DNA of 64,000 nucleotides from Patescibacteria group bacterium. GTDB taxonomy: Bacteria; Patescibacteriota; Minisyncoccia; Phycocordibacterales; Phycocordibacteraceae. The translations under genes and the position numbers were made by a program. This document shows positions 15,736 to 62,003 of this stretch, one piece after another. The stretch spans positions 307,026 to 371,025 of the forward strand of contig JAZJYZ010000001.1 of the NCBI GenBank assembly GCA_040390125.1. The letters run 5' to 3'. Every line of letters starts with the position of its first letter. The stretch's first letter is position 1. The notes beneath the pieces were generated by a model. The model was not told where the DNA came from. It did not search any database and saw only the letters and a list, made by a program, of their open reading frames with translations.

Positions 15736-16024
15736 TTTAGAGTTCCTAGTTCCTAGTTTTTCAATCAACTCTGGACTCTAAACTCAGTACTCTGAACTAA
15801 TTTCAGTACTCTGGACTAATTAAAGACTGGGAAATAGAGCAAAATCATGCTCGCAATAACCAAGACCGCCACTACGCTCCACACTATTTGGACCTTCCCT
15901 TTGTGTTTTTTATCGAACAACATAGAGGCAGTATACAATACAGAAGCTTATAGGTTCCAGCTGTCAGGTTCCAGCTTTTAATTTCAAGCTGAAAGCCGGC
16001 AGCTGAAAGCTAGAAGCTCTCTCA

Positions 16025-19380: not shown

Positions 19381-19489
19381 CTGAGCAAAGCGAAGGGGGA
19401 TGAGAATGCTCCCTGCGGAGCATTCGTAGGGGACTGTACGCTGAGTCAGGTGAAAGGGGCTATGTGTAGTGGTGCTGTACACTTGAGGC

Positions 19490-22763: not shown

Positions 22764-22816
22764 GCTCCCGATTTTGTTAGTGCACAGCACTTAGAAAATC
22801 GCAGTCCCCTTGGGGG
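22764..22816. repeat. 53-nt palindromic interspersed element, copy 1 (gctcccgattttgttagtgcacagcacttagaaaatcgcagtccccttgggg), embedded in the loop of a terminator-like stem (aaacccgcc...ggcgggttttttt)
   Basis: Near-identical copies lie at 40911-40962 and 49256-49308 (the latter in reverse orientation). The internal imperfect 15-bp inverted repeat is CGATTTTGTTATTGC / GCAATTAGAAAATCG. Confidence 0.7.
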
Positions 22817-22840: not shown

Positions 22841-22890
22841 TGTGTTTACACTGAGCGAGTCTGCGAGTCGAAGTGTGGTCACGAATATTT
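22841..22890. repeat. tRNA-associated motif gtgtttacactgagcgagtctgcgagtcgaagtgtggtcacgaat (family shared with 56090-56150, 56282-56320 and 19376-19400)
   Basis: A 35/37-nt match to 56282-56318, which directly abuts tRNA-Leu(TAG). Here it lies 128 bp from tRNA-Arg. Confidence 0.5.
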
Positions 22891-25492: not shown

Positions 25493-25587
25493 TCCTGTAT
25501 TCTAACGCACGAGCAGGGGCTAGTGGTCAGCGTTTAGCGTTTAGTGTCTGAATTTCTGAAACTTCACTAAACCCTAGCCACTAAACA

Positions 25588-27858
25588 CTAACCCCTAGCT
25601 TCCGGCCAGGGAGCCACTAACAAAAGCTCAGTTTCTTTTTTTGGGAGGTACGTCCAGATTTCTTCCGTGACGAATGGCATGAATGGATGCAGAAGCTTCA
25701 GGAAAAGAGTCAGTATGTAATAGAGAAGTCTTTGTCGTGATGACTTGCTTCTGGCATCCTCTCCTTTAAGTATAGGCTTTGACTCTTCAAGTATTTCGTC
25801 TGCAAACCGGTGCCAGATAAAATGATACAGAAGATCGAACGCAATATCGATGCGGAATTTTTCTATATGTTCTGAAACGTGTTTGGCGAGTACGTCTGCT
25901 TCCCGAGCGAGTGCTTCGTCGGTTTCTGTGTACGGTGCATCTGTAGTGGTTCCTCCACCATTTTCAAGTACGAATCTAGAAATATTCCATATCTTGTTTG
26001 CAAAATTCTTGTATCCACGTATCTTCTCTTCCGAAATTTTACTGTCGGTGCCAGGTGCCATTCCGGCAATCAAAGAAACACGTACAGCGTCCATTCCGTA
26101 TTTCTCTGCCATATCAAGTGGATCAATGTTATTTCCAAGAGATTTTGAAATTTTTCGTCCCTGTCCGTCACGCACAAGCCCATGAAGGTACACCTTTTTG
26201 AAAGGAACTTCATCGAGGAGGAATCCGCTCATGAGTATCATGCGTGCCACCCAGAAGAAGATAATATCGTAGCCAGTTTCAAGAATCGAGGTGGGGTGGA
26301 AGGTTTTCAGATCTTTCGTCTCATCAGGCCAGCCGAGCGTAGAAAAGGTCCACAGTCCCGATGAGAACCATGTGTCTAAAGTGTCTGGATCTTGTTCCCA
26401 TCCTTCACCCTCCGGTTTTTCTATGCTTACGCACATTTCTTCTGCGTCAGTCTCCGTAGCATGATCCCTGCGGATCCGACCAGGGGTCGCCTGTTCACTG
26501 TCCACTGATTGCTGCCCACTATTTCGGTACCAAACCGGTATTCGGTGCCCAAACCAAATTTGTCTGGAGATGCACCAATCTCGAAGATTATTGACCCAAT
26601 TGAAGTACGTTTTTTCATATCTTTCAGGTGTAATTTCGACAGCATTGCTCTCAACAGCTTCTTGCATCATTTTTTTCAAAGTCGTTTTCTTTCCATTTTT
26701 TTCAAACTCCGTATTGACCCCAACAAACCACTGTTTTTTTATTTGAGGTTCAATGATTCCACCACCGCGGCTATTTGTGGCAATGTTGTGAATGTATTTC
26801 TCGTCTATCTTCTCAATAAGACCTTTTGCTTTGAGTTTTTCAATGATGAGCGGTCTCGCTTTCTTGATGTGTTGCCCTGCTAACTCACCTGCGATAGAGA
26901 GGAGGATGCCACGATCATCTATGACTTGTTCTATATCAAGGTTGTGACGTTTTGCGATTTCGAAGTCCACCTGTGAATGTGCAGGCGTGATGGTCATGAC
27001 GCCAGAGCCCATCTCCATATCGGCCGCGTCGTCTTTAATGATGGTTGCCGTGATGGGTCCGTTAATCCATTCAAGATCTATAGTTTGTCCGTGTTTCCAC
27101 TCTTTGTAACGAGCATCATCAGGATGCATGACGACGTATTTATCGCCAAATTTTGTCTCGGGACGCACGGTGCCTATAACAAAAGGGCCGTATTTGAAGT
27201 AATAGAAGGGAACAGACTCTTCGACGTAGTCCATCTCGTCGTCTGAAACGGTTGTTTGAAGTTTAGGATCCCAGTTCACAATCCGGCTACCTCTATAGAT
27301 GAGACCGGCGTTGTACATTCGCACAAAAGCCTCCATGACGGCGTGGTATCGGCGGTCATCCATGGTGTAGGCGTACCTCGAAAAATCGAGCGATGCTCCC
27401 ACATGCTTCATTTGCTCAACAATTGTTTTTTCACTTTCTTTCACGAAGGTATCTATTCGGCTTAAAAGCTCTTCTCGGCCAAGATCATGGCGGGTTTTCT
27501 TCTCTTTTTTGTAGAGCTCGCCTTCGACTTTTGCTTGAGTGGCGATAGCCGCCGAGTCAGTGCCAGGAATCCAAAGAGCACGCTTTCCTTGCATTCGTGC
27601 ATGACGCACTAATATGTCCTCAATAACGAGCATCAACGCAGAGCCCATGTGAAGGATGCCAGTGACGTTTGGTGGTGGTAGCACCATTGAAAATGCTTCC
27701 GTACGCTCTTTTTGACCTTCGGCGCCGTTCAGAGGGGGTAAGTTGTCAGGGTTGAAGTAGCCACTCTCTTCCCAGCGAGTATATATAGAAGGTTCGGCTT
27801 CTTTAGGGTTGTAGGGTTGTAGGAATTTAGGGTCCATAAATACGATATTACTCTCCAA
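25588..27858 (-). CDS. valS: Valyl-tRNA synthetase (short form lacking the C-terminal coiled coil), with a repeat-derived in-frame insertion
   Basis: 756 aa. HMGS (HIGH-like), KISKS (KMSKS), and WCISRQIWFGHRIPVWY, which is ValRS-specific. An inserted segment NSGQQSVDSEQATPGRIRRDHATETDAEE is encoded by repeat DNA at 26443-26532. Confidence 0.85.
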   Translation of the reverse strand: MESNIVFMDPKFLQPYNPKEAEPSIYTRWEESGYFNPDNLPPLNGAEGQKERTEAFSMVLPPPNVTGILHMGSALMLVIEDILVRHARMQGKRALWIPGTDSAAIATQAKVEGELYKKEKKTRHDLGREELLSRIDTFVKESEKTIVEQMKHVGASLDFSRYAYTMDDRRYHAVMEAFVRMYNAGLIYRGSRIVNWDPKLQTTVSDDEMDYVEESVPFYYFKYGPFVIGTVRPETKFGDKYVVMHPDDARYKEWKHGQTIDLEWINGPITATIIKDDAADMEMGSGVMTITPAHSQVDFEIAKRHNLDIEQVIDDRGILLSIAGELAGQHIKKARPLIIEKLKAKGLIEKIDEKYIHNIATNSRGGGIIEPQIKKQWFVGVNTEFEKNGKKTTLKKMMQEAVESNAVEITPERYEKTYFNWVNNLRDWCISRQIWFGHRIPVWYRNSGQQSVDSEQATPGRIRRDHATETDAEEMCVSIEKPEGEGWEQDPDTLDTWFSSGLWTFSTLGWPDETKDLKTFHPTSILETGYDIIFFWVARMILMSGFLLDEVPFKKVYLHGLVRDGQGRKISKSLGNNIDPLDMAEKYGMDAVRVSLIAGMAPGTDSKISEEKIRGYKNFANKIWNISRFVLENGGGTTTDAPYTETDEALAREADVLAKHVSEHIEKFRIDIAFDLLYHFIWHRFADEILEESKPILKGEDARSKSSRQRLLYYILTLFLKLLHPFMPFVTEEIWTYLPKKETELLLVAPWPEARG
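26461..26526. repeat. Intragenic copy of the two-hairpin element (atgatccctgcggatccgaccaggggtcgcc) plus a cactgtccactg motif, in frame within valS
   Basis: The same element occurs intergenically at 43113-43142, 35796-35848, 42228-42258 and 53925-53955. The second hairpin shows compensatory changes between copies (cgacc/ggtcg vs cgatg/catcg vs cgacg/cgtcg). Confidence 0.65.
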
Positions 27859-29065
27859 GCTTTAAATTCCCAAGTGCAGACAAGTCACTCGTTTTGCTCA
27901 TGCCTCCAGCATGCCGGAGATATCCTGCAACGCCAATCATGATGGCATTGTCCCCAGTGAGACTAGAGTCGGGGAAGGCGAGAGTGACTTCTCCAAAGGA
28001 GTCATTTACTAACTCTGTAAGCGCACGTCTGATTTCTCTGTTAGCAGAGACTCCACCTCCTACCGCAAGAATTTTTGGTTTAGTTATTTCAAGTGCACGC
28101 TTTGTTTTTATGACTACAACGTCTCGTGCTGCATTTTCAAATGCTTCCGCAATCTGCTCTTTGTCGTGTTCCTCTAACTTATCCATACTGCGGAGTTTAT
28201 AGAGCACTGCCGTTTTAAGTCCTGAGAAAGAGAAATCGCACGTGTCATCGTGTGCCATGGGTCGGGGAAACGTAATCCCACTGTCTTCGCCTCTCTCTCT
28301 AGCCCGCAGTGCTGATGCGGCGATCTCCGGGCCACCCGGGTAGGGAAGCTCGAGTAAGCGTGCCACTTTGTCGAACGCTTCGCCGATGGCATCATCTTTT
28401 GTTGCTCCTACGTGTTCATAGACGAACGGTTCTTTCATCAGTACAAATTCTGTGTGTCCACCTGAAATCAAAAGAGCCAAGATGGGGAAGTGTACAGTGT
28501 TTAGTGTATAGCGTTTAGGTTGAAGAAGGACTTCGGATTTTTCTGTCCACTGTCCACTGTCCACTATTCCCTTTCCCAGTAAGGCTGACACAATATGTCC
28601 TTCCATATGATCAATACCTAGAACCGGAATATTCCAGGCTCGTCCTAGGCTTTCTGCAAAGTTAATTCCAGTCCACAGCGCAGGCTCAAGCCCTGGCCCT
28701 CTCGTTACTGCAATGAGTGCGACATCGGGCTTTTCAGTAGCGTTTAGAAAAGTTCTTACGTCATTTCTGAATGCTTCATCACGGATGTTTTTGAGAGAAT
28801 TTTCATATGTAGAAGTGTCGTCTGTTTTCTTGTTCAGTAGTCCAGATGCCTTTAGGACTTGTGTCGCAAGTGGTGCAAGGTTGCCCTGGTGCTCCCGTTT
28901 TGCAAGGTTGGGGTAAACTCCACCGTATGGAGCATGAAGCGGTGCTTGAGAGTACAAAGCATCTCCAAGAACAGTAAATGTTGCTTCTTTGAAATCGCCC
29001 TCAGCCTCAATAATGGCTACCGCCGTTTCATCGCAACTGGTTTCTATAGAGAGTATTTTCACCAT
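27848..29065 (-). CDS. tsaD: tRNA N6-adenosine threonylcarbamoyltransferase TsaD (Kae1/Gcp), carrying repeat-derived in-frame insertions
   Basis: 405 aa (typical length ~340). Contains the IETSCDET, HMEGH and GGVSAN motifs. ~22 extra aa (IVDSGQWTEKSEVLLQPKRYTLNT) lie between HMEGH and FPILALLISGGHT and are encoded by repeat DNA at 28489-28563 (tccactg x3, gtgtttagtgt, gaagtccttcttc). Confidence 0.85.
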   Translation of the reverse strand: MVKILSIETSCDETAVAIIEAEGDFKEATFTVLGDALYSQAPLHAPYGGVYPNLAKREHQGNLAPLATQVLKASGLLNKKTDDTSTYENSLKNIRDEAFRNDVRTFLNATEKPDVALIAVTRGPGLEPALWTGINFAESLGRAWNIPVLGIDHMEGHIVSALLGKGIVDSGQWTEKSEVLLQPKRYTLNTVHFPILALLISGGHTEFVLMKEPFVYEHVGATKDDAIGEAFDKVARLLELPYPGGPEIAASALRARERGEDSGITFPRPMAHDDTCDFSFSGLKTAVLYKLRSMDKLEEHDKEQIAEAFENAARDVVVIKTKRALEITKPKILAVGGGVSANREIRRALTELVNDSFGEVTLAFPDSSLTGDNAIMIGVAGYLRHAGGMSKTSDLSALGNLKLGE

Positions 29066-32687: not shown

Positions 32688-32729
32688 CGATATAGTATAA
32701 AAGTGCGACCGCACTTTTATACTATATCG
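32688..32729. repeat. 42-bp perfect palindrome cgatatagtataaaagtgcgaccgcacttttatactatatcg (copy 1; copy 2 at 35653-35694)
   Basis: The two copies differ at a single position (A/G). Together they bracket a 2.9-kb segment holding two tRNAs, an unknown HEPN-like protein gene and an alkA-like gene. Confidence 0.7.
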
Positions 32730-32772
32730 ACACTGTAGGTTGGAGTGCTAGTTTTTTACGGCAACTATTAGG

Positions 32773-35629: not shown

Positions 35630-35652
35630 TTTCCAAAAAACTCCCGAGGAGT

Positions 35653-35694
35653 CGATATAGTATAAAGGTGCGACCGCACTTTTATACTATATCG
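35653..35694. repeat. 42-bp palindrome, copy 2 (cgatatagtataaaggtgcgaccgcacttttatactatatcg)
   Basis: Matches copy 1 at 32688-32729 except for one G/A difference. Confidence 0.7.
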
Positions 35695-35795: not shown

Positions 35796-35848
35796 CGTAT
35801 TATCCTCTCGGATCCGATGAGGCATTTTGGTCCCTGCGGACACGATGA
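35796..35848. repeat. Two-hairpin element, duplicated/degenerate copy (ctcggatccgatgaggcat + ggtccctgcggacacgatgaagcatcgcc), followed by the AGCT-rich repeat
   Basis: Homologous to 43113-43142. Confidence 0.5.
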
Positions 35849-35889
35849 AGCATCGCCTAAAAGCTGAAAGCTAGCACCTAGAACCTAAT

Positions 35890-38093: not shown

Positions 38094-38229
38094 AGTGAAA
38101 TAGCTTTCAGCTTTCAGGTTCCGGCTTTCAGCTTCGAATTCAGAAAAGCTGAAACCTGACAGCTGGCACCTGAAAGCTTATTCGAGCAGTTTACCTCGTG
38201 GGTTGAAAAAATAAAAGAAATCAAAGTAC

Positions 38230-39153: not shown

Positions 39154-39288
39154 AAAAAGCTTCTAGCTTCTAGCTTATAGCTTTTAGCTTTAAACAGCAA
39201 GAAAAAAGAAATCCCCACTCTCTAATAAAAAAAGAAAGCCGGAACGTGCGTCATAATTCAGTTCAAAAATCTTTTTAAGAAAATCTTA

Positions 39289-40777: not shown

Positions 40778-40910
40778 GGTTTTTTTGAGAGGTTATTAAC
40801 TAGTTGCCTCATCATAGAGAAAATGAACTCTCGTTGCAACATTTGACTTTCTTTTCTTTTTGTATCTAAAAACTAGAGACTATCTTAAGCTTCCAGGTGT
40901 CAGCTGCCAG

Positions 40911-40962
40911 GCTCCCGGTTTTGTTATTGCATAGCAATTAGAAAATCGCAGTCCCCTTGGGG
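40911..40962. repeat. 53-nt palindromic element, copy 2 (between ftsA and ftsZ)
   Basis: gctcccggttttgttattgcatagcaattagaaaatcgcagtccccttgggg, flanked by AGCT-rich repeats. Confidence 0.7.
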
Positions 40963-41018
40963 AGTTTCAGTTTTTCTGAATTAAAGCTGAAAGCCGAAAG
41001 CTGGCAGCTAAAACCTGC

Positions 41019-42191
41019 CTAAGGTAAAAATTGTCGCAAAAACCCAAGAGCGGAATTTCCAATGTCTTTGAGTGCGATGCCTGCGGCGGGCCTGGCAAAA
41101 TTGTCACCAGTGAGCCCCCATACGGTAAGACCGTACGCTACTGCCCATGATGAATCTTTTATTTTGGCGTCGGATGCAATATTAAGTGAAGCTATTTTTG
41201 AATGAAGTTTCAACGCTGATTCAGCGATTTCTTTTATGGGTCCAATACCTGAGCCACCACCTGAAAGCACAATGCCTGCCGGTAAGAGCTGATCTTTGCC
41301 GAGTTTTTTTAAATGCCCGTCAATAAGTTCGAAGATGTCGATGAGGCGTGCGGTAAGAATGTCATCGAATTTTTTCTTCGAATACGAGGCGTTTGTAATG
41401 GCACCCAATTTTAATTGTTCTGCTTCGTCCAAGGAGATACGAAGTCCGAGCGCAATGTCTTTGGTGATGTCCATTGAGCCAATGCGAAACACTTTGAGTG
41501 AGACTGGCATGCCGTTATCAAAGACCACAATGGAAACTGTTTCAGCGCCGATGTTTGCAAGAACGCACCCAGCTTTTTTCTCTGCGTTTGAAAGTGTGAT
41601 GATGGAACCTGCCAAGGGGGAGGCCATCGTGTCGGCAACTGCAATTTCTGCTCGCTCAACGGACTCGATTAAATCGTTTACATGCTGTTCAAGGCAGGTA
41701 ATGAAAAGAGTCTCAACAGAGAGCTTTGTTCCTTTCATGCCGTGCGGACGACCCAAGACTTCTGTTCCGTCTATAGAGAAGGTGAGGGGAACGGTGTGGA
41801 GAATCTTTCTATTCACGAGTCTTCCGGAAACGTTTTCACGTGACGCATCTATGGCTTTTTCTATATCGAGGTCAGTTACTTCAGCGTCTGCTCGTGCGAT
41901 GATTGCGTCGCCACGGCCTCGCACTTCATCAAGTCCGATGCCACCAATAGAAAGGAATGCTGTCTTTATTTTTACGCCGGCAAAATCTGCGGCTTGAGCG
42001 GCGGCAATTCTGATTGAGCGTGCGACGTCGTCTGCATTCACTATATAGCCATGGCGGAGTCCTTTTGATTCTGCGTAGCCCGTGCCTATGATTTTCGGAA
42101 ACAGTGATGCACGATCTGCGGATTCACGTGCAATAACAACACGCACCTGGTAGGTTCCGACGTCTATGCCAACTGCAATTCGGGAGGCCAT
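41019..42191 (-). CDS. ftsA: Cell division protein FtsA
   Basis: 390 aa with an actin-like ATPase fold. Contains GIDVGTYQVRVVIAR and LSGGGSGI, and sits directly upstream of ftsZ. Confidence 0.9.
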   Translation of the reverse strand: MASRIAVGIDVGTYQVRVVIARESADRASLFPKIIGTGYAESKGLRHGYIVNADDVARSIRIAAAQAADFAGVKIKTAFLSIGGIGLDEVRGRGDAIIARADAEVTDLDIEKAIDASRENVSGRLVNRKILHTVPLTFSIDGTEVLGRPHGMKGTKLSVETLFITCLEQHVNDLIESVERAEIAVADTMASPLAGSIITLSNAEKKAGCVLANIGAETVSIVVFDNGMPVSLKVFRIGSMDITKDIALGLRISLDEAEQLKLGAITNASYSKKKFDDILTARLIDIFELIDGHLKKLGKDQLLPAGIVLSGGGSGIGPIKEIAESALKLHSKIASLNIASDAKIKDSSWAVAYGLTVWGLTGDNFARPAAGIALKDIGNSALGFLRQFLP

Positions 42192-42227
42192 TTTAGCTAG
42201 GGGGTAGGGGTTAGCGATTAGGGGATA

Positions 42228-42258
42228 GGCGACGCTTCGTCGGATCCGAAGGGATCAT
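42228..42258. repeat. Two-hairpin element, reverse orientation (ggcgacgcttcgtcggatccgaagggatcat)
   Basis: The reverse complement atgatcccttcggatccgacgaagcgtcgcc matches the family. Here hairpin 1 has loop CTTC and hairpin 2 is cgacg/cgtcg. Confidence 0.6.
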
Positions 42259-42306: not shown

Positions 42307-42699
42307 TCAGCTATACGGGGTGGGGATTTTCAGTGTTTTGCAGAACTTTTTTTCGAGAGTTTCCATTTTTTTGCCATGGTCGTGCCCTTGCAAGTGGAGC
42401 ATGCCGTGGATGAAAAGGAAGGATAGGTAATTGTGAGAGTTCATTCCAAATTCTGGTGCTTTTTTTTTCACCATGCTCATGCAGATATAGAGTTCGCCAG
42501 TTTTTTTACTCAGAGGGAAGGCAAGGATGTCGGTTGCAGAGTCCTTACGGCGGTACTGACGATTAAGTGCTTGCATTTTTTGTGGCGGAATGAATACAAG
42601 CGAGAGCTCGTACGTTTTACCAAGCACTTTCTCTTTCATCTTCAAAAAAGGCACTCTAGGAGTAGAGTGCCGTGCCGTATTTGCGATTACGAAATTCAT
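42307..42699 (-). CDS. ybeY: rRNA maturation endoribonuclease YbeY
   Basis: 130 aa. HGMLHLQGHDH is the H3xH5xH zinc motif. Confidence 0.85.
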   Translation of the reverse strand: MNFVIANTARHSTPRVPFLKMKEKVLGKTYELSLVFIPPQKMQALNRQYRRKDSATDILAFPLSKKTGELYICMSMVKKKAPEFGMNSHNYLSFLFIHGMLHLQGHDHGKKMETLEKKFCKTLKIPTPYS

Positions 42700-43112: not shown

Positions 43113-43142
43113 TGATCCCTGCGGATCCGATGAGGCATCGCC
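43113..43142. repeat. Two-hairpin element, canonical copy (tgatccctgcggatccgatgaggcatcgcc)
   Basis: Hairpin 1 is GATCC-CTGC-GGATC and hairpin 2 is CGATG-AGG-CATCG. It is flanked by AGCT-rich repeats at 43045-43110. Confidence 0.65.
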
Positions 43143-44308
43143 TAACTTCGGTGTCCTCGTGTCACGTAGTTTCCAAGTTTGTCTAAAGGTATGGTCGTCT
43201 GCACTTGGGTGGCGACGGAGCGGACTATTGCCGTGTTATCCAATGCTTCACGTTGTCCAATAATCGCAATGTATTTGGTGCCTGATGCTGTCCCTTTCTC
43301 TACTTGATCACGAAGGTTATCTGTCATAAGCGCTTGTCCTACTGCCACGTGAGCACGCCAAAGAGCCTCTAGGAGTGCGAAGGATCGAAGTTTCGCAGCA
43401 TCTCCGACGTGGACTATAAAGCAAGCTGGTTCGTCTTCGAGCGATTCAACATCGATACGTCCTTGCATTTCAATACTCATTGCTACGGCGGGCTCTGCGT
43501 GGGCGCCTCGGGCGCGCTTGGCGTATTCGTCGTAACGCCCGCCGGTTGCTATGCGCACACGTTCACCTTTTTTGTCTGTTCCTTCAATGGCAAAGAGCAG
43601 TTCTGATTCCACCCCAGGTTCTGCAATGAGGCGTGACTGAATAGAATAGGCAATACCCACTGATTCAAAAAGTGACAGCGTTGCGAGCATGGTTTTTCGG
43701 GAACTCTCTGAAAGGTAATCAATAGAGCGTGGCATCTGTTCCACTACGGGATCTTTTCGTTCGAGCATGGTGCGGTAGGCAAGATCAGGGTCGTGCGGAA
43801 CGATTGCTTTCAAATCTTCAGGTATTGCGTCGTTTCGTTTTTTGAAGAAGTTGCCGAGTTCACGTGTGAATCGTTTTCGTGATTCTGCATCTCCTACGGA
43901 GGACACCAGTACAGAAAGATCACTGAAGCCCGCCACCTCTGATATGGAGAGAGCGGTTTTTACAACTATTGCGGGTGCAATAGCGTGGCGTGTTGAGAAA
44001 ATCCCAAATGAAACTAGCGTGCCTGAACCTTTACGTGATACTCCCCAGGTTTGTATAGGGCCTTTACCACTCTCTGCAATGTTCACCAGTGCACTTGAAG
44101 CTGAAGTTTTTGCGTTAGCTCCATTACTGGCAGTTGCGAGTGCTCGTTTAGAAATGTTTGCGGGTGAACTAGTGAATCCGTATGCATAAGCAATACGTCC
44201 GATTGATTGTTCCAAAGATTCGTTCTGTTTTCCTTTTTCAAGTGAGCGCATATTTAGTAAGTAGTGAGTAGTAAGTGGAGGGTCGTGAAGAAAGAGGATG
44301 AAAAGCAA
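43142..44308 (-). CDS. Histidyl-tRNA synthetase-like protein (HisS/HisZ family, divergent N-terminal motifs)
   Basis: Contains IATGGRYDEY (HisRS motif 3) and a C-terminal anticodon-binding domain (YIAIIGQREALDNTAIVRSV). Motifs 1 and 2 are degenerate or low-complexity. The real start is probably an internal Met. Confidence 0.55.
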   Translation of the reverse strand: MLFILFLHDPPLTTHYLLNMRSLEKGKQNESLEQSIGRIAYAYGFTSSPANISKRALATASNGANAKTSASSALVNIAESGKGPIQTWGVSRKGSGTLVSFGIFSTRHAIAPAIVVKTALSISEVAGFSDLSVLVSSVGDAESRKRFTRELGNFFKKRNDAIPEDLKAIVPHDPDLAYRTMLERKDPVVEQMPRSIDYLSESSRKTMLATLSLFESVGIAYSIQSRLIAEPGVESELLFAIEGTDKKGERVRIATGGRYDEYAKRARGAHAEPAVAMSIEMQGRIDVESLEDEPACFIVHVGDAAKLRSFALLEALWRAHVAVGQALMTDNLRDQVEKGTASGTKYIAIIGQREALDNTAIVRSVATQVQTTIPLDKLGNYVTRGHRS

Positions 44309-44973: not shown

Positions 44974-45097
44974 TGTTATTCATGCAAAAATATTTTTTTC
45001 GTATACACTTTAAGGAGCTTCCAGGTTTCAGCTGTCAGGTTCCAGCTTGAATTTAAAAAGCTGAAAGCCGGTAGCTGACAGCTGAAAGCTCTGCATC

Positions 45098-47948: not shown

Positions 47949-48173
47949 ATGGGCACTACACCAGAAGGCACAATAGAACGAAGGCATCGGGACCGCCTAA
48001 AAGAGGATATGGATATGTTAGCTGACTGGGTGGATACTTCTGAGGCTATGGGTGAGGATATGAGTCGGGCTGATACTGTTTTGGGGTTACAATTAATCAG
48101 GGGATTTATTTTTGATGACTTAGATGCCGCAGGCATCCCTCCTCCTAGAAAGTTTCCTCCCTCTAAGCTCTAA
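47949..48173 (+). CDS. Hypothetical small protein, paralog B (74 aa, MGTTPEGTIERR...)
   Basis: Shares its 5' UTR and first 8 codons (33 of 39 nt) with paralog A. The remainder is unrelated. Confidence 0.4.
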   Translation: MGTTPEGTIERRHRDRLKEDMDMLADWVDTSEAMGEDMSRADTVLGLQLIRGFIFDDLDAAGIPPPRKFPPSKL

Positions 48174-48314
48174 GCTCTAAGCTCTAAGCTAAAAGCCCGA
48201 GGTGAGTGGGATGAAGGTGTGGGTGAAGATTGATTTTTCTCTCAACTCTAAACTAGGAACTCAGAACTCCCTCCAGTCTGTTCACTGTTCACTGTTTGCT
48301 GTACACTTGTCGGA

Positions 48315-49198: not shown

Positions 49199-49255
49199 CT
49201 GTTAGGTTTTAGGTGTGAGGTTTGCTGTTAAAAGCTGACAGCTGACAGCTGGAAT

Positions 49256-49308
49256 CCCCCAAGGGGACTGCGATTTTCTAATTGCTACGCAATAACAAAA
49301 TCGGGAGC
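49256..49308. repeat. 53-nt palindromic element, copy 3 (reverse orientation), upstream of gyrA
   Basis: The reverse complement gctcccgattttgttattgcgtagcaattagaaaatcgcagtccccttggggg matches copies 1 and 2. It is flanked by cagctgacagctg AGCT-rich repeats. Confidence 0.7.
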
Positions 49309-49357
49309 CTGACAGCTGGAACCCAGAGTCTTTGAATGTTATTATAGAAGCTAAATC

Positions 49358-51826
49358 ATGGCTCGAAAGAAAGTGCAAACAGCACCTGAAGATAGCGCTC
49401 CGAAGGCCGACATGGGCCTTCGTGTCATTTCACATTCAATCGTTACTGAAATGCGTGAGTCGTACCTCGACTACGCAATGTCTGTTATTACCTCTCGTGC
49501 CTTGCCTGATGTGCGTGATGGTTTGAAGCCCGTGCATCGTCGCATTCTCTACACCATGCATCGCATGGGACTTACCGCTACATCAAAACCTCGAAAGTCT
49601 GCGGCGGTGGTTGGAGATGTCTTGGGTAAATACCATCCGCATGGCGACAGTGCTGTGTATGAAGCAATGGTAAAGATGGCGCAGAACTTCACCATGCGCT
49701 ACCCGCTTATTATCGGACAAGGAAACTTCGGTTCTATCGATGGCGACTCTGCAGCTGCTATGCGTTACACCGAAGCGAAGATGTCAAAACTTTCTGCTGA
49801 TCTTCTTTCTGACCTCGATAAAGACACCGTTGAATGGCGTCCAAACTACGATGGTACCCAAAAGGAACCTAACGTTCTTCCCGCAGGAGTTCCCAATATT
49901 CTTTTGAATGGAACCTTGGGTATTGCGGTGGGTATGGCAACGAATGTGCCTCCCCACAACCTTGGCGAAGTGGTAGATGCCACCGTGCATCTTATTGATA
50001 ATCCTGATGCATCGGTTGATGAGCTTTTGCAATTTGTTCAAGGGCCTGATTTCCCGATCGGAGGCATTGCATTTAACTCGAAAGATATTGCACACGCATA
50101 CGCAACAGGTCGTGGGCCTGTGGTTGTGCGAGGTAACGCAGAAATTACTGAAGACAAGAAAGGTAACAACATCATTCTTATTACGTCTATTCCGTATCGT
50201 GTAAACAAAGCCGACCTCATCATAAACATCGCAGACTTGGTGCGTGATAAAAAACTCGAAGGGGTGCGAGACCTCCGTGATGAATCAACCACCGACATTC
50301 GTGTTGTCGTGGAGTTGAAAAATAACGCCCAGCCGCAGCAGGTGTTGAATTATCTCTACAAACACACCCAGCTTGAGGATGCTTTTCACTACAACATGGT
50401 GCTTTTGGTGGATGGCGTTCCTGAAACACTTTCACTCTCGGCGGTTCTTTCACACTTCATCGAGCACAGAAAGGTTGTTGTAAAACGACGCACGGAGTTT
50501 GATTTGAGACGTGCCCAAGAGCGAGAGCATATTTTGCTCGGACTTAAAAAAGCACTTGATCATATCGATGAAATCATCAAAGTAATTAAGGCTGCAAAAG
50601 ATGTGCAGGGTGCACATGCTGACCTTCAAAAGAAGTTCAAATTCTCTGAGCGCCAAGCTACAGCAATTCTTGAAATGCGTCTGCAAAAACTTGCGGGCTT
50701 GGAGCGGAAGAAAATTGAGGATGAATTAAAGGAGATACAGGCACTCATCAAGGAGTTAGAAGAGATACTTTCTTCAACAAAGAAGATAATGAAGGTCGTT
50801 AAGACCGAACTTTTGGCACTTCGTGAAAAGTATGCGGATGAGAGACGCACCAAAATTGTGAAGGGTGGCATTAAAAATATGTCAGATGAAGATTTGATTC
50901 CTGACGAAGCAGCGATGCTCACTCTTACTTCTACTGGTTACGTAAAGCGCACATCCCCAAGCGAATATAAGAAGCAAAATCGAGGCGGTGTGGGCGTGAT
51001 TGATTTGAATACAAAAGAAGAAGACTTCGTTACTCGGTTCTTAGAGGGCTCGACACATGATTCAGTGCTCTTTTTCTCAGACAGGGGAAAGGTGTACCGA
51101 ACACGCATGTATGAAGTGCCTGAAGGTAGGCGTGCCACCAAGGGTAAATCAATAATGAATGTGCTCCCGCTATCTGCTGAAGAGCGTATTACGTCTATCG
51201 TTGCGTTGACTAAAAAATCCGCAACTTCTTCTTTCATGTTGGTGACCGAAAAAGGTGCAGCAAAGAAAGTGAAGGCGGATCAGTTTGAAGATGTACGTCG
51301 TTCAGGAATTATTGCGATGTCGCTCCAGACGGGGGACAGTTTGATTGCGGTGTTGCCCGTAGAGAAAGGAGATAGCGTTATTTTGGTAACCGCAGGAGGG
51401 CAGGCAATTCGGTTTAAAGAGTCTGACATTCGTGAGATGGGACGAACGGCTGGGGGAGTGCGGGGAATGAAGTTTGGTACCAAAGACAAAATAATCGCTG
51501 CCGATGTGATTAAGAGCGAGAAGGAGAGTGAAATACTCGTTCTTGCTGATATGGGCTATGGCAAGCGTACACCTGCGAAGGAATACAAAATACAAAAGCG
51601 TGGTGGCTCGGGTATTAAGACAGGAAAAGTAACACCAAAAACTGGCAGTATCATCGCCGCTCGTGTAGTTACTCCAGAGATGGCAGAAATAATTGTTGCC
51701 TCAAAAAATGGACAAGTGATTCGAACTGAACTTTCACAAGTGCCGACGCTTTCACGCGCAACACAAGGAGTTCGTATCATGAAGCTTCGTGAGGGAGATA
51801 AAATTGCGGCGTTCACTGCGTTTTAG
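49358..51826 (+). CDS. gyrA: DNA gyrase subunit A
   Basis: 822 aa. The N-terminus [26 protein letters not shown] and the active-site region AAMRYTE are present. The C-terminal beta-pinwheel carries a GyrA-box-like QNRGGVG. Confidence 0.93.
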
Positions 51827-52008
51827 CTTCCAGCTGTCAGGTTCCAGCTTTCAGCTGCCAGCTTCTGAATTCCGAGTTTCAGAAAAGCTGAAAGCTGAAA
51901 GCTGAAAGCCGACAGCTGGCAGCTGAAAGCTTTTAGAAATCAAAGCCAAAAGCCAGTTTTCTCCCCACCTACGCTTTCACTGTTAGGTAAAGCCTATATA
52001 ATGAAAAT

Positions 52009-52587: not shown

Positions 52588-53880
52588 ATGAAACTCTTTC
52601 ATGTCATTGTGCTTGGTATTTTTCTTGCACTTGCCGTAGGTGCGGTAATTATTTTTGCTACATTTACTTCTCTTAATAAAAATAGTGTTGGCAGTGTTTC
52701 CATTTGGGGCTCTATACCACAAGCAACCTTCGACACATTGCTGGTGAGTATCAAAGAGGGGAATACTACATATGACGGCGTGTCGTATCGTTCAATTCCC
52801 GAGGGTGAGCTTATTCCCGCACTTGTTGAAGCGATCGCTGCGGGCCAGGGGCCTGACTTAGTAGTGTTCCCTGCGGAAAATCTTATATCTCAAAGTGACA
52901 AGCTCACCACTATCCCTTACAGCAATATCAGTCGTCGTGATTTTCAAAATACATTCATACAAGCAGGGGAGGTTTTTCTTGTTGAGAGCGGTTTAAAGGC
53001 GATCCCGTTTAGCGTTGATCCGCTCGTCATGTATTGGAACCGTACGTTGTTTGCAAATGCGGGTATTGCACAGCCACCAAGGTTTTGGGATGAGCTCTCC
53101 GACATGGCAACTCGCCTCACAAAAGCACAAGACAACGGTACGTTGACTCAAAATGCCGTTGCCTTGGGTACGTGGGACAACGTGGATCACGCAAAGGCCA
53201 TTTTTCTCACGCTTGCCTACCAGCTTGGAAACAGTGTTGTAGTAAGGAGTGGCCAAGGTTTGTATGTTTCAGTAATGAAAGACACTGCGGGCGGTAGTGG
53301 GGTACCTTCAGTTGATTCTGCACTTCGCTTCTACACAGATTTTGCGGACCCGGTAAAACCGATTTATTCATGGAATCGCTCACAGCCTGAATCACGTAGT
53401 GCGTTTTTGGGAGAGAAGCTAGGTGTATATTTTGGTTCCGCAAGCGAACTTGTAGGGATACGTGAAGCAAATCCGAATTTGAATTTTGATGTAGCACCTG
53501 TGCCGACTATTCGTGGAAATAATGGAGGAGTAGCGGCCGAACTTACCGGGCTTGCAATTCCTCGGGGAAGCAGGAATCCCGGAGGAGCACTGTTAATAGC
53601 AGAACTACTTACGAGCCCCGATTTGCAGGCATCTCTGCTCTCACTCATGTCTTTGCCATCGGTGCGACGTGATTCCGTTGGCACGTCTCCAAATGATCCT
53701 TACGGCACGATGTTTGAGAACGCAGCACTTCTTTCGTTTGCATTTCTTGATCCTGACCCAACAGCCACTGATTCAATTTTTAAACGTATGGTGGAGGGTG
53801 TTTCTTCGGGTAAACTGCAGGTGAGCGAGGCTACGGGTGGGGCTAACGATGAATTACAAGCACTTTTAGGGACACCTTAG
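52588..53880 (+). CDS. ABC transporter extracellular solute-binding protein (family 1, sugar-type)
   Basis: 430 aa with an N-terminal TM anchor and a periplasmic binding-protein-like fold. The AIPFSVDPLVMYWNRTLFANAGI motif is present. Confidence 0.65.
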   Translation: MKLFHVIVLGIFLALAVGAVIIFATFTSLNKNSVGSVSIWGSIPQATFDTLLVSIKEGNTTYDGVSYRSIPEGELIPALVEAIAAGQGPDLVVFPAENLISQSDKLTTIPYSNISRRDFQNTFIQAGEVFLVESGLKAIPFSVDPLVMYWNRTLFANAGIAQPPRFWDELSDMATRLTKAQDNGTLTQNAVALGTWDNVDHAKAIFLTLAYQLGNSVVVRSGQGLYVSVMKDTAGGSGVPSVDSALRFYTDFADPVKPIYSWNRSQPESRSAFLGEKLGVYFGSASELVGIREANPNLNFDVAPVPTIRGNNGGVAAELTGLAIPRGSRNPGGALLIAELLTSPDLQASLLSLMSLPSVRRDSVGTSPNDPYGTMFENAALLSFAFLDPDPTATDSIFKRMVEGVSSGKLQVSEATGGANDELQALLGTP

Positions 53881-53924
53881 TAGGGTACAATGGGAAACAG
53901 CCAGCTTTCAGGTTACAGCTTTTA

Positions 53925-53955
53925 GGCGACGTTTCGTCGGATCCGCAGGGATCAT
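53925..53955. repeat. Two-hairpin element, reverse orientation (ggcgacgtttcgtcggatccgcagggatcat)
   Basis: The reverse complement atgatccctgcggatccgacgaaacgtcgcc matches the family. Hairpin 2 is cgacg-AAA-cgtcg. Confidence 0.6.
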
Positions 53956-53981: not shown

Positions 53982-54347
53982 ATGAAAAAAACATTTGCTC
54001 GAGTCATCCCGCTTGCATTGCCATTTTTTCTTCCGCTAGCGGTTTTTGCTGCAGGTTGTGAAGGAGGGACGGCAGGGGGTCTCTGTAATCCTCTTGGATA
54101 TGACTCGTTGTGGACTTTTTTGGAAAGGATACTTAAGTTGATAGTCGAAATAGGCTTTCCCGTCATTGTGCTGTACATCGTATTCATAGGTTTCAAATTC
54201 ATCACCGCTTCAGGAAAGCCCGAGGAACTTGCAAAAGTCAGGAGCCTCTTTTTCTGGGCGATTATTGGTGCTCTAGTAGTACTTGGTGCTCAAGCCCTTG
54301 CTTTGGCAATCCAGGCTACAGTTAATGATATTCAACAAGGAATCTAA
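53982..54347 (+). CDS. T4SS-pilin-like small membrane protein (TrbC/VirB2-like architecture), paralog 1
   Basis: 121 aa: signal peptide (ALPFFLPLAVFAAG) followed by two hydrophobic helices separated by a short polar loop (ASGKPEELAKVRS). Confidence 0.5.
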   Translation: MKKTFARVIPLALPFFLPLAVFAAGCEGGTAGGLCNPLGYDSLWTFLERILKLIVEIGFPVIVLYIVFIGFKFITASGKPEELAKVRSLFFWAIIGALVVLGAQALALAIQATVNDIQQGI

Positions 54348-54365
54348 TTTCCTCGGTATGCAGGT

Positions 54366-54815
54366 ATGACACTCACTTCAATTATCAATACGATGACCGA
54401 GGTTGTGTTGTTAGCAGTTCCGTGGGGGTTTTTATTCTTGCTGTTCTATTGGAATATTTACAAGCTTATTACCGAGTCAGACAATGCAGAAAAACGAAAG
54501 CAGGCCGTTCCTCGTCTTGTGTGGAGCATCGTTGCACTTGCGGTAGTCTTTTCTATAGGAGGAATTGTTAATATTCTCAGCAATACGCTTCTTGGTTCAA
54601 ACAATTCAACGTTTGCACCCACAGATTCCACTCCCGTCACTCCTTTCACTCCTCGCACCTCGCCCGAAGATGGACCGAAAACTGAAACTCCAGCAACTCC
54701 TTCTGGTTCTTCTGTGAGCCCTGGCACTTCGCCTTTCAACCCGGATATCAACGACCCTGGTTTTGAAAGAGTTCCTCCAACATCAAGTGACCCTAATCCA
54801 ATACAGAATATTTAA
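54366..54815 (+). CDS. T4SS-pilin-like small membrane protein, paralog 2 (with Pro/Thr/Ser-rich C-terminal tail)
   Basis: 149 aa. Two hydrophobic helices flank ESDNAEKRKQAVPR. The tail is TPVTPFTPRTSPEDGPKTETPATPSGSS. Confidence 0.5.
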   Translation: MTLTSIINTMTEVVLLAVPWGFLFLLFYWNIYKLITESDNAEKRKQAVPRLVWSIVALAVVFSIGGIVNILSNTLLGSNNSTFAPTDSTPVTPFTPRTSPEDGPKTETPATPSGSSVSPGTSPFNPDINDPGFERVPPTSSDPNPIQNI

Positions 54816-54831
54816 AAAATTATTTGAATAT

Positions 54832-55185
54832 ATGAAAAAAATAATACGTATAAGTTTTATGAGCGCAGTCACATTAATGCCACTTTCGGCATTTGCAGCT
54901 GCTACCACCATCCAGGATGTCTTGCGCAATCTTGCAGACCCTATCCGCATGGCAACGATTACCGTTGTCTCGCTCGCACTCCTCGCATTCTTTTGGGGTT
55001 TGGCGATGTATGTTTTTGGCTCTTCAAACGATGAGAAGCGAAAAAAAGGCATCCCCATAATGATTTGGGGTATTGTGGCAATTTTTGTCATGCTTTCCAT
55101 AGCTGGCATTGTAAATATGCTCCAAGCAACTTTTGAAGTGGGTCCGGGCAATCTCCAAATCCCAACCATACGCAAAGCACAGTAG
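54832..55185 (+). CDS. T4SS-pilin-like small membrane protein, paralog 3
   Basis: Signal peptide MKKIIRISFMSAVTLMPLSAFAAA, then LALLAFFWGLAMYVFGSSNDEKRKKGIPIMIWGIVAIFVMLSIAGIV. Start set at the MKK just after the upstream stop codon. Confidence 0.55.
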   Translation: MKKIIRISFMSAVTLMPLSAFAAATTIQDVLRNLADPIRMATITVVSLALLAFFWGLAMYVFGSSNDEKRKKGIPIMIWGIVAIFVMLSIAGIVNMLQATFEVGPGNLQIPTIRKAQ

Positions 55186-55303
55186 TCTGGCTTAATCCAC
55201 ACACGCTTCGTATAGTGCCCCTTGAAACAAGGGAAATGGTACAATGAGCGGGCAATTATTATTCAACCTATTTATCCCTTAGCTTTAAAAGGCTTTTAAT
55301 TAT

Positions 55304-55672
55304 ATGAAAGGATTTTTAAAAACAAGTATTGCGACTGTAGTAGCGTTCGCTCCTCTTGCGGTGTTTGCTGCTGATGCTCAAAATGCCCTGTCAAAGATTG
55401 GTGCCCTCATAACACAAGCAACGCCAATCGTTGTAGCGCTCGCACTGCTCGCATTCTTCTGGGGCTTGGTTACTTACATCTTTGGCTCTTCAAATGATGA
55501 TAAGCGAAAGAAGGGTATTCACATTATGATTTGGGGTATCATCGCTCTTTTCGTGATGCTTTCAGTGTTCGGTATCATTAGAGCTCTTCAAAGCACTTTG
55601 GAACTCGATACGAGCGGAAGTATTAATATTCCTAAGGTTAATACTTCCGGAGGCGGTAGTGTCTCACAGTAA
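55304..55672 (+). CDS. T4SS-pilin-like small membrane protein, paralog 4
   Basis: 122 aa. Signal peptide, then LALLAFFWGLVTYIFGSSNDDKRKKGIHIMIWGIIALFVMLSVFGII, which is ~75% identical to paralog 3 across the core. Confidence 0.55.
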   Translation: MKGFLKTSIATVVAFAPLAVFAADAQNALSKIGALITQATPIVVALALLAFFWGLVTYIFGSSNDDKRKKGIHIMIWGIIALFVMLSVFGIIRALQSTLELDTSGSINIPKVNTSGGGSVSQ

Positions 55673-56073: not shown

Positions 56074-56089
56074 TGTATTTGAAGTGTCT

Positions 56090-56313
56090 GCACTGAGTGA
56101 GTCATCGAATCGAAGTCTGGGCGAAGAAGGACTTGGTCACGAGTTACTAAGCATTTTGCTCCGTGTTTACTCCAAGTGAGTCTTTGGATTAAGTGCCCTT
56201 CGACTACTCTCACCCTTCGATTAAACTCAGGGTTTCGCTTCGCTCAGGGTACTTCGTCTCTCTTGCTCACATTTGCCCAGTGTTTACACTGAGCGAGCTT
56301 GCGAGTCGAAGTG
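56090..56313 (-). mobile_element. tRNA-Leu(TAG)-associated element. It holds a direct copy of the tRNA 3' end (tgggcgaagaaggacttgg, 56118-56136), the shared cgtgaccaa block, and two copies of the cactgagcgag...cgaagtg motif (56090-56117 and 56289-56313)
   Basis: In the tRNA orientation the layout is tRNA 3' end, then cacttcgactcgcaagctcgctcagtg, then a ~170-bp spacer, then cgtgacca, then agtccttcttcgccca, then gacttcgattcgatgactcactcagtg. This is the same architecture as the Ser, Lys and Val loci. Confidence 0.4.
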
Positions 56314-56395
56314 TGGGCGGAAGAGGACTTGAACCTCCACCCCTTGCGGGACTAGCTCCTAAGGCTAGCGCGTCTGCCAATTTCGCCATCCGCCC
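56314..56395 (-). tRNA. tRNA-Leu (anticodon TAG), class II
   Basis: Read on the reverse complement: acceptor GGGCGGA/TCCGCCC, anticodon stem CTAGC/GCTAG with loop CTTAGGA, long variable arm, T-arm GGAGG-TTCAAGT-CCTCT. Confidence 0.85.
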
Positions 56396-57409: not shown

Positions 57410-57491
57410 TGCCCGGGGTGAGACTCGAACTCACACTCCTTACGGAACTCGATCTTAAGTCGAGCGCGGCTACCGATTACGCCACCCGGGC
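57410..57491 (-). tRNA. tRNA-Leu (anticodon TAA), class II
   Basis: Read on the reverse complement: acceptor GCCCGGG/CCCGGGC, anticodon stem CTCGA/TCGAG with loop CTTAAGA, long variable arm, T-arm GTGAG-TTCGAGT-CTCAC. Confidence 0.85.
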
Positions 57492-57959
57492 AGGTTTCTT
57501 ATTTTTACCACGATGAGTTGGTTTCAAGCTATGGCAGTTGGGGCAAAGCACTCTGAGGTTACTAAGTCTATTGTCCCTACTGTCTCCATTGATATGGTCC
57601 AACTCAAGAGGAATTCTACCGTCATCAGAGGTTTTTGCCCATCCGCATTCTTCACAACACTTTTCTTTTAAATTTGCTTTATAGAGTCTTCTTTTAAGTT
57701 TAAAGCTTTGAAAATCGACATTTTTTCTTAGGAGTTCTTTAAGTGGTCGTTCGTTGGTATGTGGTCGCTTAATACCTTTTAACCACCCTTTCCCCGTGAA
57801 ATGTTGTGTAGATATTTTTAGGTCTCTAATTCGTTTCTGTATTTGGACGTAGTTGCCACCTGCTGGAATTAGACTTAGACATTTCAAAACAGCTCGAATG
57901 CTTCGCGATTCACGTACCGCTTGTTTTAATTGGGCGTCATTCCAAGATTTTCTTCGCAT
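57477..57959 (-). CDS. Free-standing HNH endonuclease (homing-endonuclease-like)
   Basis: 160 aa. LELDHINGDSRDNRLSNLRVLCPNCH is the HNH motif with a CxxC...CxxC zinc finger. Its 3' end overlaps the first 15 nt of tRNA-Leu(TAA). Confidence 0.7.
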   Translation of the reverse strand: MRRKSWNDAQLKQAVRESRSIRAVLKCLSLIPAGGNYVQIQKRIRDLKISTQHFTGKGWLKGIKRPHTNERPLKELLRKNVDFQSFKLKRRLYKANLKEKCCEECGWAKTSDDGRIPLELDHINGDSRDNRLSNLRVLCPNCHSLKPTHRGKNKKPARVA

Positions 57960-61936: not shown

Positions 61937-62003
61937 TCTTTCACTCGCATTACTTGTTGTTCAAAGCTGAAAGCTGTAAGCTGAAAGCTAGAAGCTTCTG
62001 CAT

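Follow-up and report, generated by a model that had tools for sequence, protein, structure and literature searches.

In Nostocaceae, Elhai and colleagues reportedly described in 2008 (Genome Res 18:1484) both the modules SDR1–8, which are 21–27 nt long, and heptamer arrays named STRR. Genomes of Patescibacteria, the candidate phyla radiation (CPR), are about 1 Mb in size and are thought to be poor in repetitive or selfish DNA. According to a citing paper (PMC5861425), SDRs were found only in Nostocaceae. Proteobacteria carry the GTAG-/CGTC-tagged REP/BIME elements (Di Nocera et al. 2013, PMC3733652), which are short (20–40 nt), G+C-rich hairpin repeats that occur about once per 10–25 kb, lie mainly outside genes and occasionally within them, maintain their stems through compensatory mutation and are present in some relatives but not in others. 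All these properties are shared by the element analyzed here, a two-hairpin module present in several copies in a 64,000-nt stretch of contig JAZJYZ010000001.1 (the window).

A sequence-only reading of the window had picked out this element at five sites and called it REP-like. We find that both hairpins are kept by Watson–Crick covariation, that copies are gained and lost at orthologous sites with sub-variants enriched by lineage, that they associate with heptamer arrays and that the element is orientation neutral. As an analogy of function, "REP-like" is fair: the copies are scattered, lie mainly outside genes, and come and go from one relative to another. The interpretation we favor, with confidence and doubt about evenly balanced, is a non-autonomous REP/SDR-like selfish or domesticated dispersed DNA element. 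Such a module would spread by copying, mostly into intergenic heptamer arrays and now and then, in frame, into genes. Its propagation or retention would depend on both hairpins forming in DNA, either single-stranded or cruciform, and a trans-acting protein would recognize these DNA hairpins.

Two hairpins maintained by covariation

The 28-nt core of the module, T-GATCC-CTKC-GGATC-CGAYG-ARG-CRTCG, is followed by a near-invariant CCTR. Two 5-bp hairpins directly adjoin each other in it; the loop has 4 nt in hairpin 1 and 3 nt in hairpin 2. The 3′ flank reads CCTR in 37 of 42 copies and CCT in 39 of them. RNAalifold recovers the identical two-hairpin structure de novo, and both strands fold equally well (−9 to −13 kcal/mol as RNA, −6 to −8 kcal/mol as DNA).

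When up to three mismatches are allowed, the 17-nt core GATCCCTGCGGATCCGA matches the window five times against 0.11 expected, a count that none of 100 shuffles reaches. A covariance model built from 24 copies and run over the window with filters off scores the same five copies at 42–63 bits (E = 1e-17 to 1e-26). The element is thus present at all five sites named by the sequence-only reading, and the hairpin sequences and the CTTC loop quoted there are correct. The copies and their weaker relatives are:

43113–43144, plus strand: full copy, 56.6 bits; leading T, hairpin 1 GATCC-CTGC-GGATC at 43114–43127, hairpin 2 CGATG-AGG-CATCG at 43128–43140, CCTA at 43141–43144.
42226–42257, minus strand: full copy, 62.8 bits; loop CTTC, hairpin 2 CGACG-AAG-CGTCG.
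53923–53954, minus strand: full copy, 58.3 bits; hairpin 2 CGACG-AAA-CGTCG.
26462–26493, plus strand: full copy, 57 bits; hairpin 2 CGACC-AGG-GGTCG; inside valS (25588–27837, minus strand).
35828–35859, plus strand: degenerate full copy, 41.8 bits; GGTCC-CTGC-GGACA, CGATG-AAG-CATCG, CCTA.
35801–35825, plus strand: 5′ partial copy, TATCC-TCTC-GGATC-CGATG-AGG-CAT, fused head to tail to the 35828 copy.
19405–19441, plus strand: weak hairpin-1-only relative, 15.1 bits (E = 1e-4); ATGCTCC-CTGC-GGAGCAT, 3′ of tRNA-Gly.

The last of these is the sole further match of note that the covariance model gives in the window. In it, the A:T pair of hairpin 1 is replaced by C:G, and its membership in the family is uncertain. 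What had been listed as a single copy at 35796–35848 does contain the element, but resolves into the 5′ partial copy and a degenerate full copy that runs to 35859, past the end assigned to it. Partial head-to-tail duplications of this kind recur (window 35801, L125, L131 and L090; L-numbers denote loci of relatives compared with the window). Likewise, the three hairpin-2 variants that had been listed are right, but a fourth, CGACG-AAG-CGTCG at 42230–42242, had been overlooked.

Pairing was assessed in 41 distinct copies, left after duplicate removal, from public metagenome-assembled genomes (MAGs) and metagenomes that represent at least seven related Paceibacterota genomes. Standard pairs are formed by 98.8% of the 410 stem cells. 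Compensated cells number 28 as against 5 broken and 4 wobble cells, so that non-compensatory changes come nowhere near the frequency of compensatory ones. The observed covariation score and count of doubly changed cells are reached by 0 of 500 shuffles, and as a control, sliding the 3′ partners by 1–3 columns leaves 20–41% of cells paired. Together with the RNAalifold structure, these results bear out the proposal that pairing is conserved through compensatory changes. Stem variation is concentrated in three pairs:

Hairpin 1, pair 2: A:T in 31 copies, T:A in 5, G:C in 4 and A:C in 1 (plus C:G in the weak 19405 copy).
Hairpin 2, pair 4: C:G in 21 copies, T:A in 16, T:G in 3 and C:A in 1.
Hairpin 2, pair 5: G:C in 37 copies, C:G in 2, T:A in 1 and G:T in 1.

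Fisher tests give p = 3e-8 for pair 2 of hairpin 1 and p = 1e-7 for pair 4 of hairpin 2. Hairpin 1, which the sequence-only reading had taken as invariant, therefore covaries as well. The same reading had stem changes as always complementary. This is true of every hairpin-2 change in the window, but hairpin 1 of the 35828 copy (GGTCC/GGACA) has one pair compensated and another broken. Two of the three variable pairs, one in each hairpin, and the K base of the hairpin-1 loop occur in 16 combinations, and all six pairings of hairpin-1 type with hairpin-2 type are present, which means that the covariation does not simply reflect two clonal subfamilies. Orthologous copies can differ by compensated pairs (L043 vs L130, L001 vs L118), and the window copy at 42226 differs from its L125 ortholog by a single uncompensated, one-sided change (A:C). 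G:T wobbles number 4 in the 410 stem cells and non-pairing cells 5, two of which are A:C or C:A; strand assignment from the G:T and A:C counts was rejected, as 4 vs 2 is too weak a contrast.

The consensus also holds a perfect 10-bp palindrome, TCGGATCCGA, the BamHI site GGATCC and two GATC sites. These would suit a double-stranded DNA site, centered on the palindrome, for a dimeric protein or a restriction-modification or Dam system. However, 9 of the 41 copies have GTTCC/GGAAC or GGTCC/GGACC. These copies lack the palindrome together with the BamHI site and the two GATC sites, yet complementarity within the hairpin is kept, so pairing is what is conserved. This covariation pattern effectively refutes the palindrome/BamHI/Dam-site reading, and we regard a duplex site of any such kind as very improbable. 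As to the unpaired positions, C9, T10, C12 and the leading T vary as little as the stems do across genomes that are only 75–85% identical, which points to sequence-specific recognition or to very recent spread from masters.

Host range, turnover and genomic context

The genes of the window are the housekeeping set of a reduced genome, including a short ValRS of 749 aa, TsaD, FtsZ, FtsA, GyrA, IF-2, LepA, Pth, S1 and 11 tRNAs. We scanned the exact hairpin-1-core pattern over 185,579 species genomes (596 Gb), which gave at least 117 loci. Among the matches listed, about 95 are single ones in unrelated phyla and none of them has hairpin 2, as chance predicts for a 17-mer in 596 Gb, whereas all 22 in Patescibacteria MAGs carry hairpin 2 and CCT. 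The carrier MAGs among the matches listed are JAGOSG01, VMHB01, JBBAAE01, SCTS01, CAYNOO01 and CAYGDK01. Several carrier loci are syntenic with the window at 72–86% nucleotide identity, and by this synteny the window organism belongs to the Paceibacterota and is related to SO_2017_GW3_33 and FW305_bin.14. Two carrier MAGs are labeled "Saccharibacteria", which looks loose: L029 and a Paceibacterota MAG have a protein in common at 94% identity. A metagenome scan, in which the four inner pairs of hairpin 1 were left free and all four Y/R combinations were allowed at pair 4 of hairpin 2, returned just 17 stretches from three sample sets; one of these sets includes duplicates of JBBAAE01 loci as well as loci with synteny to the window. 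Viral contigs scanned for the element gave no match. The family is thus real and phylogenetically narrow; in the material sampled it is confined to one clade of Paceibacterota relatives. As a side observation, L137 and L138 (Logan SRR26324623) place the window's population in a public run; their short-read contigs of 2–10 kb are consistent with repeats fragmenting assemblies of these genomes.

Comparison of orthologous sites reveals how the copies turn over. ValRS of the window organism carries an in-frame insert at 26446–26523 (78 nt, 26 aa) made of the module and heptamers (CTGTTCA, CTGTCCA and similar). The module part, antisense to valS, encodes ATPGRIRRDH. The ValRS of L104, which is 88% identical, lacks this insert. 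Conversely, L104 has a copy just downstream of valS, a position at which the window has heptamer arrays only. In another MAG, the ArgRS gene holds, at L110 895–933, the same rare hairpin-2 variant (CC...GG) as the valS copy, with the same CTGTTCA heptamer flanks, in the same frame and encoding the same peptide TPGRIRRDH (there as STPGRIRRDH). The 43113 copy is missing from the orthologous L125 spacer, where the C-terminus and TAG stop of the adjacent gene are the same; the CTA of "CCTA" therefore belongs to the flank. Conversely, a copy near pth in L125 (at 8135) is missing from the window, and the 42226 copy is retained at its L125 ortholog together with an extra partial tandem copy.

Two filled/empty pairs are clean, and both fit simple target duplication poorly. 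In L117 relative to L076, the 28-nt TGATCC...CGTCG replaces AAA(C) of one heptamer, before a pre-existing CCTGACAGC. In L132 relative to L069, a CTAA|CCA heptamer is interrupted by 34 inserted nucleotides. The loop variant CTGC is commoner in the window and SCTS lineages than elsewhere (7/9 vs 5/32, p = 0.001), which suggests lineage-specific amplification. Separately, a hairpin upstream of the module in L117 (~5745–5775) differs from that of L076 by compensatory changes (CACCCGCTCATTTCTGAGTGGGTG vs CACCCGTCCACTTCTGGACGGGTG), and may be a genuine terminator hairpin.

With respect to genes, 39 of the 44 covariance-model matches analyzed were called outside open reading frames (ORFs) and 5 inside; among the latter, the copies in valS of the window and in ArgRS of L110 are confirmed as in-frame intragenic insertions. 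The window copies had been placed at operon boundaries and between convergent genes. One of them is indeed convergent, lying at 35828 between an HhH-GPD glycosylase gene (plus strand) and an AdoHcy hydrolase gene (minus strand), but three have co-directional neighbors and the fifth is within a gene. Of the co-directional ones, the 42226 copy is sense to transcription between ybeY (42307–42699, minus) and ftsA (41019–42191, minus). The 53923 copy is antisense between genes for a solute-binding protein (52588–53880, plus) and a type IV secretion system (T4SS) pilin (53982–54347, plus). The CTA of the 43113 copy (43142–43144) forms the TAG stop of a minus-strand class-II aminoacyl-tRNA synthetase-like gene (43142–44251). 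Across the family, copies in co-directional spacers are antisense in 13 cases and sense in 12, while 7 copies are convergent and 4 divergent.

These data bear on the view that the element works in RNA, as a cis element in the 3′ or 5′ untranslated regions of mRNA that serves as stabilizer, terminator, processing site or protein-binding site. The majority of copies lie 0–100 nt from gene ends, both hairpins persist in minimum-free-energy folds of native intergenic transcripts, and the covariation resembles that of structured RNAs. Nonetheless, sense and antisense copies are equally frequent, there is no U-tract, and the stems are only 5 bp long, with a total of about −9 to −13 kcal/mol. G:U accounts for about 1% of stem cells and is no commoner than mismatches, unlike in typical structured RNAs, and of the four copies with a G:T, three would have an A:C mismatch there in the likely transcript. 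Rfam returned only tRNAs at the gathering threshold over the whole window, and nothing relevant around two copies at E up to 10. An RNA-level role therefore seems rather unlikely to us. Intrinsic termination in particular was considered and rejected: there is no U-run, and one of the five copies passes a loose scan through the antisense hairpin 1 and a fortuitous flank. Together with the equal folding of both strands, the random orientation, the rarity of G:T, the lack of a U-tract and the lack of an Rfam match favor DNA over RNA. Where the sequence-only reading had left the choice between RNA and single-stranded DNA, we infer that the structure acts at the DNA level, or on both strands.

An in-phase heptamer lies directly 3′ of 36 of the 42 copies (CT recurs at +9/+10, with strict 7-nt periodicity), and in the 5′ flank CT is found at −6/−5 and −13/−12. 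In 27 of 42 copies a CTR stands 0 or 2 nt ahead of the element, and both flanks are heptamer arrays with CTR every 7 nt; the flanking CTR/CCTR may reflect a preferred target, a duplicated target or simply the phase of the array. By this periodicity the module lies within tandem heptamer arrays or borders on them. Such arrays, about 30 of period 7 in 64 kb, occupy most intergenic spacers of the window; their units include AAAGCTG, TTTCGGC, CTAAACG, TAGGGGT and CTGTCCA, and many are inverted pairs that would fold into long hairpins. They include:

42198–42229: tandem array of TAGGGGT, 4.6 units, directly adjoining the 42226 copy on its 3′ (CCTA) side.
366–396, 14040–14118, 15944–16018, 25520–25591 and 38096–38179: example heptamer arrays.
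39158–39190, 45013–45090, 48161–48190, 51821–51931 and 61963–61996: further heptamer arrays.

In orthologous spacers of relatives, array type and length are completely different. Moreover, tsaD (27848–29065, minus) contains an in-frame (CTGTCCA)x3.3 array at 28543–28572, which corresponds to GIVDSGQWTEKSEVL, an insert of 15 aa that the L104 ortholog (75% identical) lacks. Heptamer arrays alone can thus lengthen essential proteins. As a separate observation, an SSSGQS-type stretch in CysRS of L131 (2613–4079) may derive from heptamers. Comparable arrays are known from Cyanobacteria, Beggiatoaceae and Bacteroidetes (PMC4679880); our literature search found no published report of heptamer arrays in CPR.

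The ubiquity of the arrays raises the question of whether the module is a passive by-product that no protein recognizes, moved by ectopic recombination or gene conversion and with its stems kept by template-switch (quasipalindrome) repair. The in-phase heptamers 3′ of the copies, the 7-nt CT periodicity of the 5′ flank, the swapping of whole intergenic arrays between orthologous sites, the partial tandem duplications of the module and the entry of heptamers alone into genes such as tsaD all agree with it. Against it speak the unpaired C9, T10, C12 and leading T, which are as constant as the stems, and the lineage-specific enrichment of the CTGC loop variant. We consider this explanation unlikely.

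The window holds further repeats that stand apart from the module. A second family, GCTCCCGATTTTGTTAGTGCACAGCACTTAGAAAATCGCAGTCCCCTTGGGG..., 52–84 nt long, occurs at 22764–22816, 40887–40970 and 49249–49332 with 86–92% identity, one copy being inverted. A 44-nt perfect palindrome, CGATATAGTATAAAAGTGCGACCGCACTTTTATACTATATCG, is present in two copies 2.9 kb apart (32688–32731 and 35651–35694). A 37-nt repeat, GTGTTTACACTGAGCGAGTCTGCGAGTCGAAGTGTGG, is found three times, each time beside tRNA genes (22842–22878, 56084–56120 and 56280–56316). Finally, three paralogous small T4SS-pilin (PF18895) genes stand in a row at 53982–55672, including a 146-nt direct repeat (54952–55097 and 55418–55563).

Search for a mobilizing enzyme

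Under the favored interpretation, copying would be active and a mobilizing enzyme would exist. The sequence-only reading had suggested an HUH/RAYT-type transposase. In such a system a Y1 transposase would bind single-stranded DNA hairpins and would cut and paste the module, as with E. coli REP/BIME and the ends of IS200/IS605. This would account for hairpins that are kept on DNA whatever the direction of transcription. In addition, read on the reverse strand, the copies with CCTR lie directly 3′ of YAGG, which resembles target choice by IS200/IS605, with no obligatory target duplication.

The searches do not support this idea. No RayT homolog was detected by phmmer with E. coli RayT against six-frame ORFs of the window and carrier loci, 359 kb in all (best E = 0.78). 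A scan for the HUH...Y motif in the same 359 kb, which surround about 40 copies, gave 0 matches. Pfam identified no transposase of any kind, Y1/HUH included, among about 60 window ORFs; apart from one small HNH endonuclease, these are housekeeping genes. The genes between close copy pairs encode a LOG-family protein, pilins and CysRS, and no transposases. A small free-standing HNH endonuclease ORF of 160 aa (57477–57959, minus) lies between tRNA-Leu and tRNA-Cys and has no evident link to the repeat.

Nor does the element itself show the defining marks of tagged REPs or of REPINs. There is no unpaired GTAG/CGTC tag: the 5′ end is T and the 3′ flank is CCTR (YAGG on the opposite strand), a GTAG reading (CCTAC) occurs in one copy, and CGTC is confined to the hairpin-2 stem of some variants. 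REPIN-style inverted doublets are lacking as well, close pairs being direct (partial) tandems; the sole inverted pair, about 780 nt apart in L118, flanks a LOG-family gene. HUH single-strand transposition, as in IS608 and ISDra2, has a strong lagging-strand bias. The orientation of our copies relative to local GC skew is 23 vs 19 overall and 15 vs 16 where |skew| > 0.03, and the window, a single replichore by cumulative skew, has three plus-strand and two minus-strand copies. Given the expected bias, this counts mildly against a RAYT. Mobilization by a RAYT/HUH enzyme thus appears distinctly unlikely, and the suggestion that the hairpins are its target is unsupported by the window and the 359 kb searched.

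A non-autonomous dispersed DNA element remains our preferred interpretation, and several points, besides the fruitless search for a transposase, weigh against it. The module has no terminal inverted repeats, the hallmark of MITEs; its ends, TGATCC... and ...CRTCG(CC), have no mutual complementarity. The junctions are not clean cut-and-paste, as the replacement of 3–4 nt of a heptamer in L117/L076 illustrates. Since heptamer repeats flank almost every copy, dispersal could be due to ectopic recombination between arrays rather than to transposition, and template-switch "quasipalindrome correction" could yield compensatory changes without selection. Moreover, the sample comprises only 41 copies, which are mutually related and were retrieved by patterns that fix parts of the element.

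Two other classes of repeat were considered and rejected. A solo repeat of CRISPR type does not fit: spacer arrays are lacking, and in the 48-nt tandem of L090 nothing but heptamers lies between the units. DNA-uptake sequences (DUS/USS) occur at a density of about one per 1–2 kb, whereas the module, with 5 copies in 64 kb, occurs once per 13–26 kb.

More tentatively, the module and its accompanying heptamer arrays might together form an unrecognized CPR mobile system, either protein-less or with a novel enzyme, that rebuilds intergenic regions and inserts in frame into essential proteins. We see this as possible, with the balance tilted against it. If true, the module/heptamer system would be a major, unstudied driver of sequence change in minimal genomes, convergent with SDR/STRR of Nostoc. 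More generally, a structured 28-nt module that turns over between close relatives and lengthens essential enzymes in frame offers a handle on minimal-genome evolution, and the repeat is a potential strain-typing marker. If it is merely a decaying selfish repeat, it would be a routine addition to the REP/MITE catalogue.

Comparison with known systems

Full-text literature searches turned up no account of repeats like these in Patescibacteria/CPR, nor of this sequence. The likeness to REP/BIME outlined at the beginning has clear limits. A REP is one long imperfect palindrome (20–40 bp, one stem-loop), whereas the present module has two abutting 5-bp hairpins, with no unpaired GTAG/CGTC tag, no inverted doublets and no RAYT found, and it resides in a CPR host. 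In a further contrast with REP/BIME, the CPR module avoids divergent intergenic regions weakly. REPINs have also been proposed to be non-autonomous hairpin elements amplified within the genome (Bertels and Rainey 2011, PMC3116915). However, a REPIN is an inverted REP pair at fixed spacing with a cognate RAYT that is itself flanked by REPs, while the present copies stand alone or in direct partial tandems, and a RAYT was found near none of about 40.

With the ends of IS200/IS605 the module has in common sub-terminal DNA hairpins and insertion beside a fixed tetranucleotide with no necessary target duplication. It differs in having no cargo, no TnpA and no replication strand bias, and its two hairpins are unlike each other and directly abutting. 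In-frame insertion into essential genes without destroying them, here ValRS and ArgRS, is a trait shared with the RPE of Rickettsia and with intragenic small mobile sequences (reviews by Delihas, PMC2229807, PMC3184786). RPE are 100–150 bp long and encode a longer peptide, whereas the present insert is a 28-nt module with heptamers, 26 aa in total.

In architecture and context, the closest analog is SDR/STRR of Nostocaceae. SDRs are reportedly hairpin modules of less than 30 nt that insert precisely into conserved sequence, are embedded in tandem heptamers, encode no protein and have no known mobilizing enzyme (Elhai et al. 2008, as cited in PMC5861425 and PMC4390886), and all of this applies to the CPR module too. 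The differences are in phylum and sequence, in the slightly longer CPR unit and in the target, CCTR/heptamer here as opposed to HIP1. Given the Paceibacterota host, the relationship can be at most one of analogy. The CPR module would then be a second, phylogenetically remote case of the syndrome that Nostoc shows, a tiny hairpin module combined with heptamer arrays, and comparative genomics could then be brought to bear on the question of the mobilizer. The element itself is best filed as a small dispersed hairpin repeat that lies outside every named family, a new variant within that known class.

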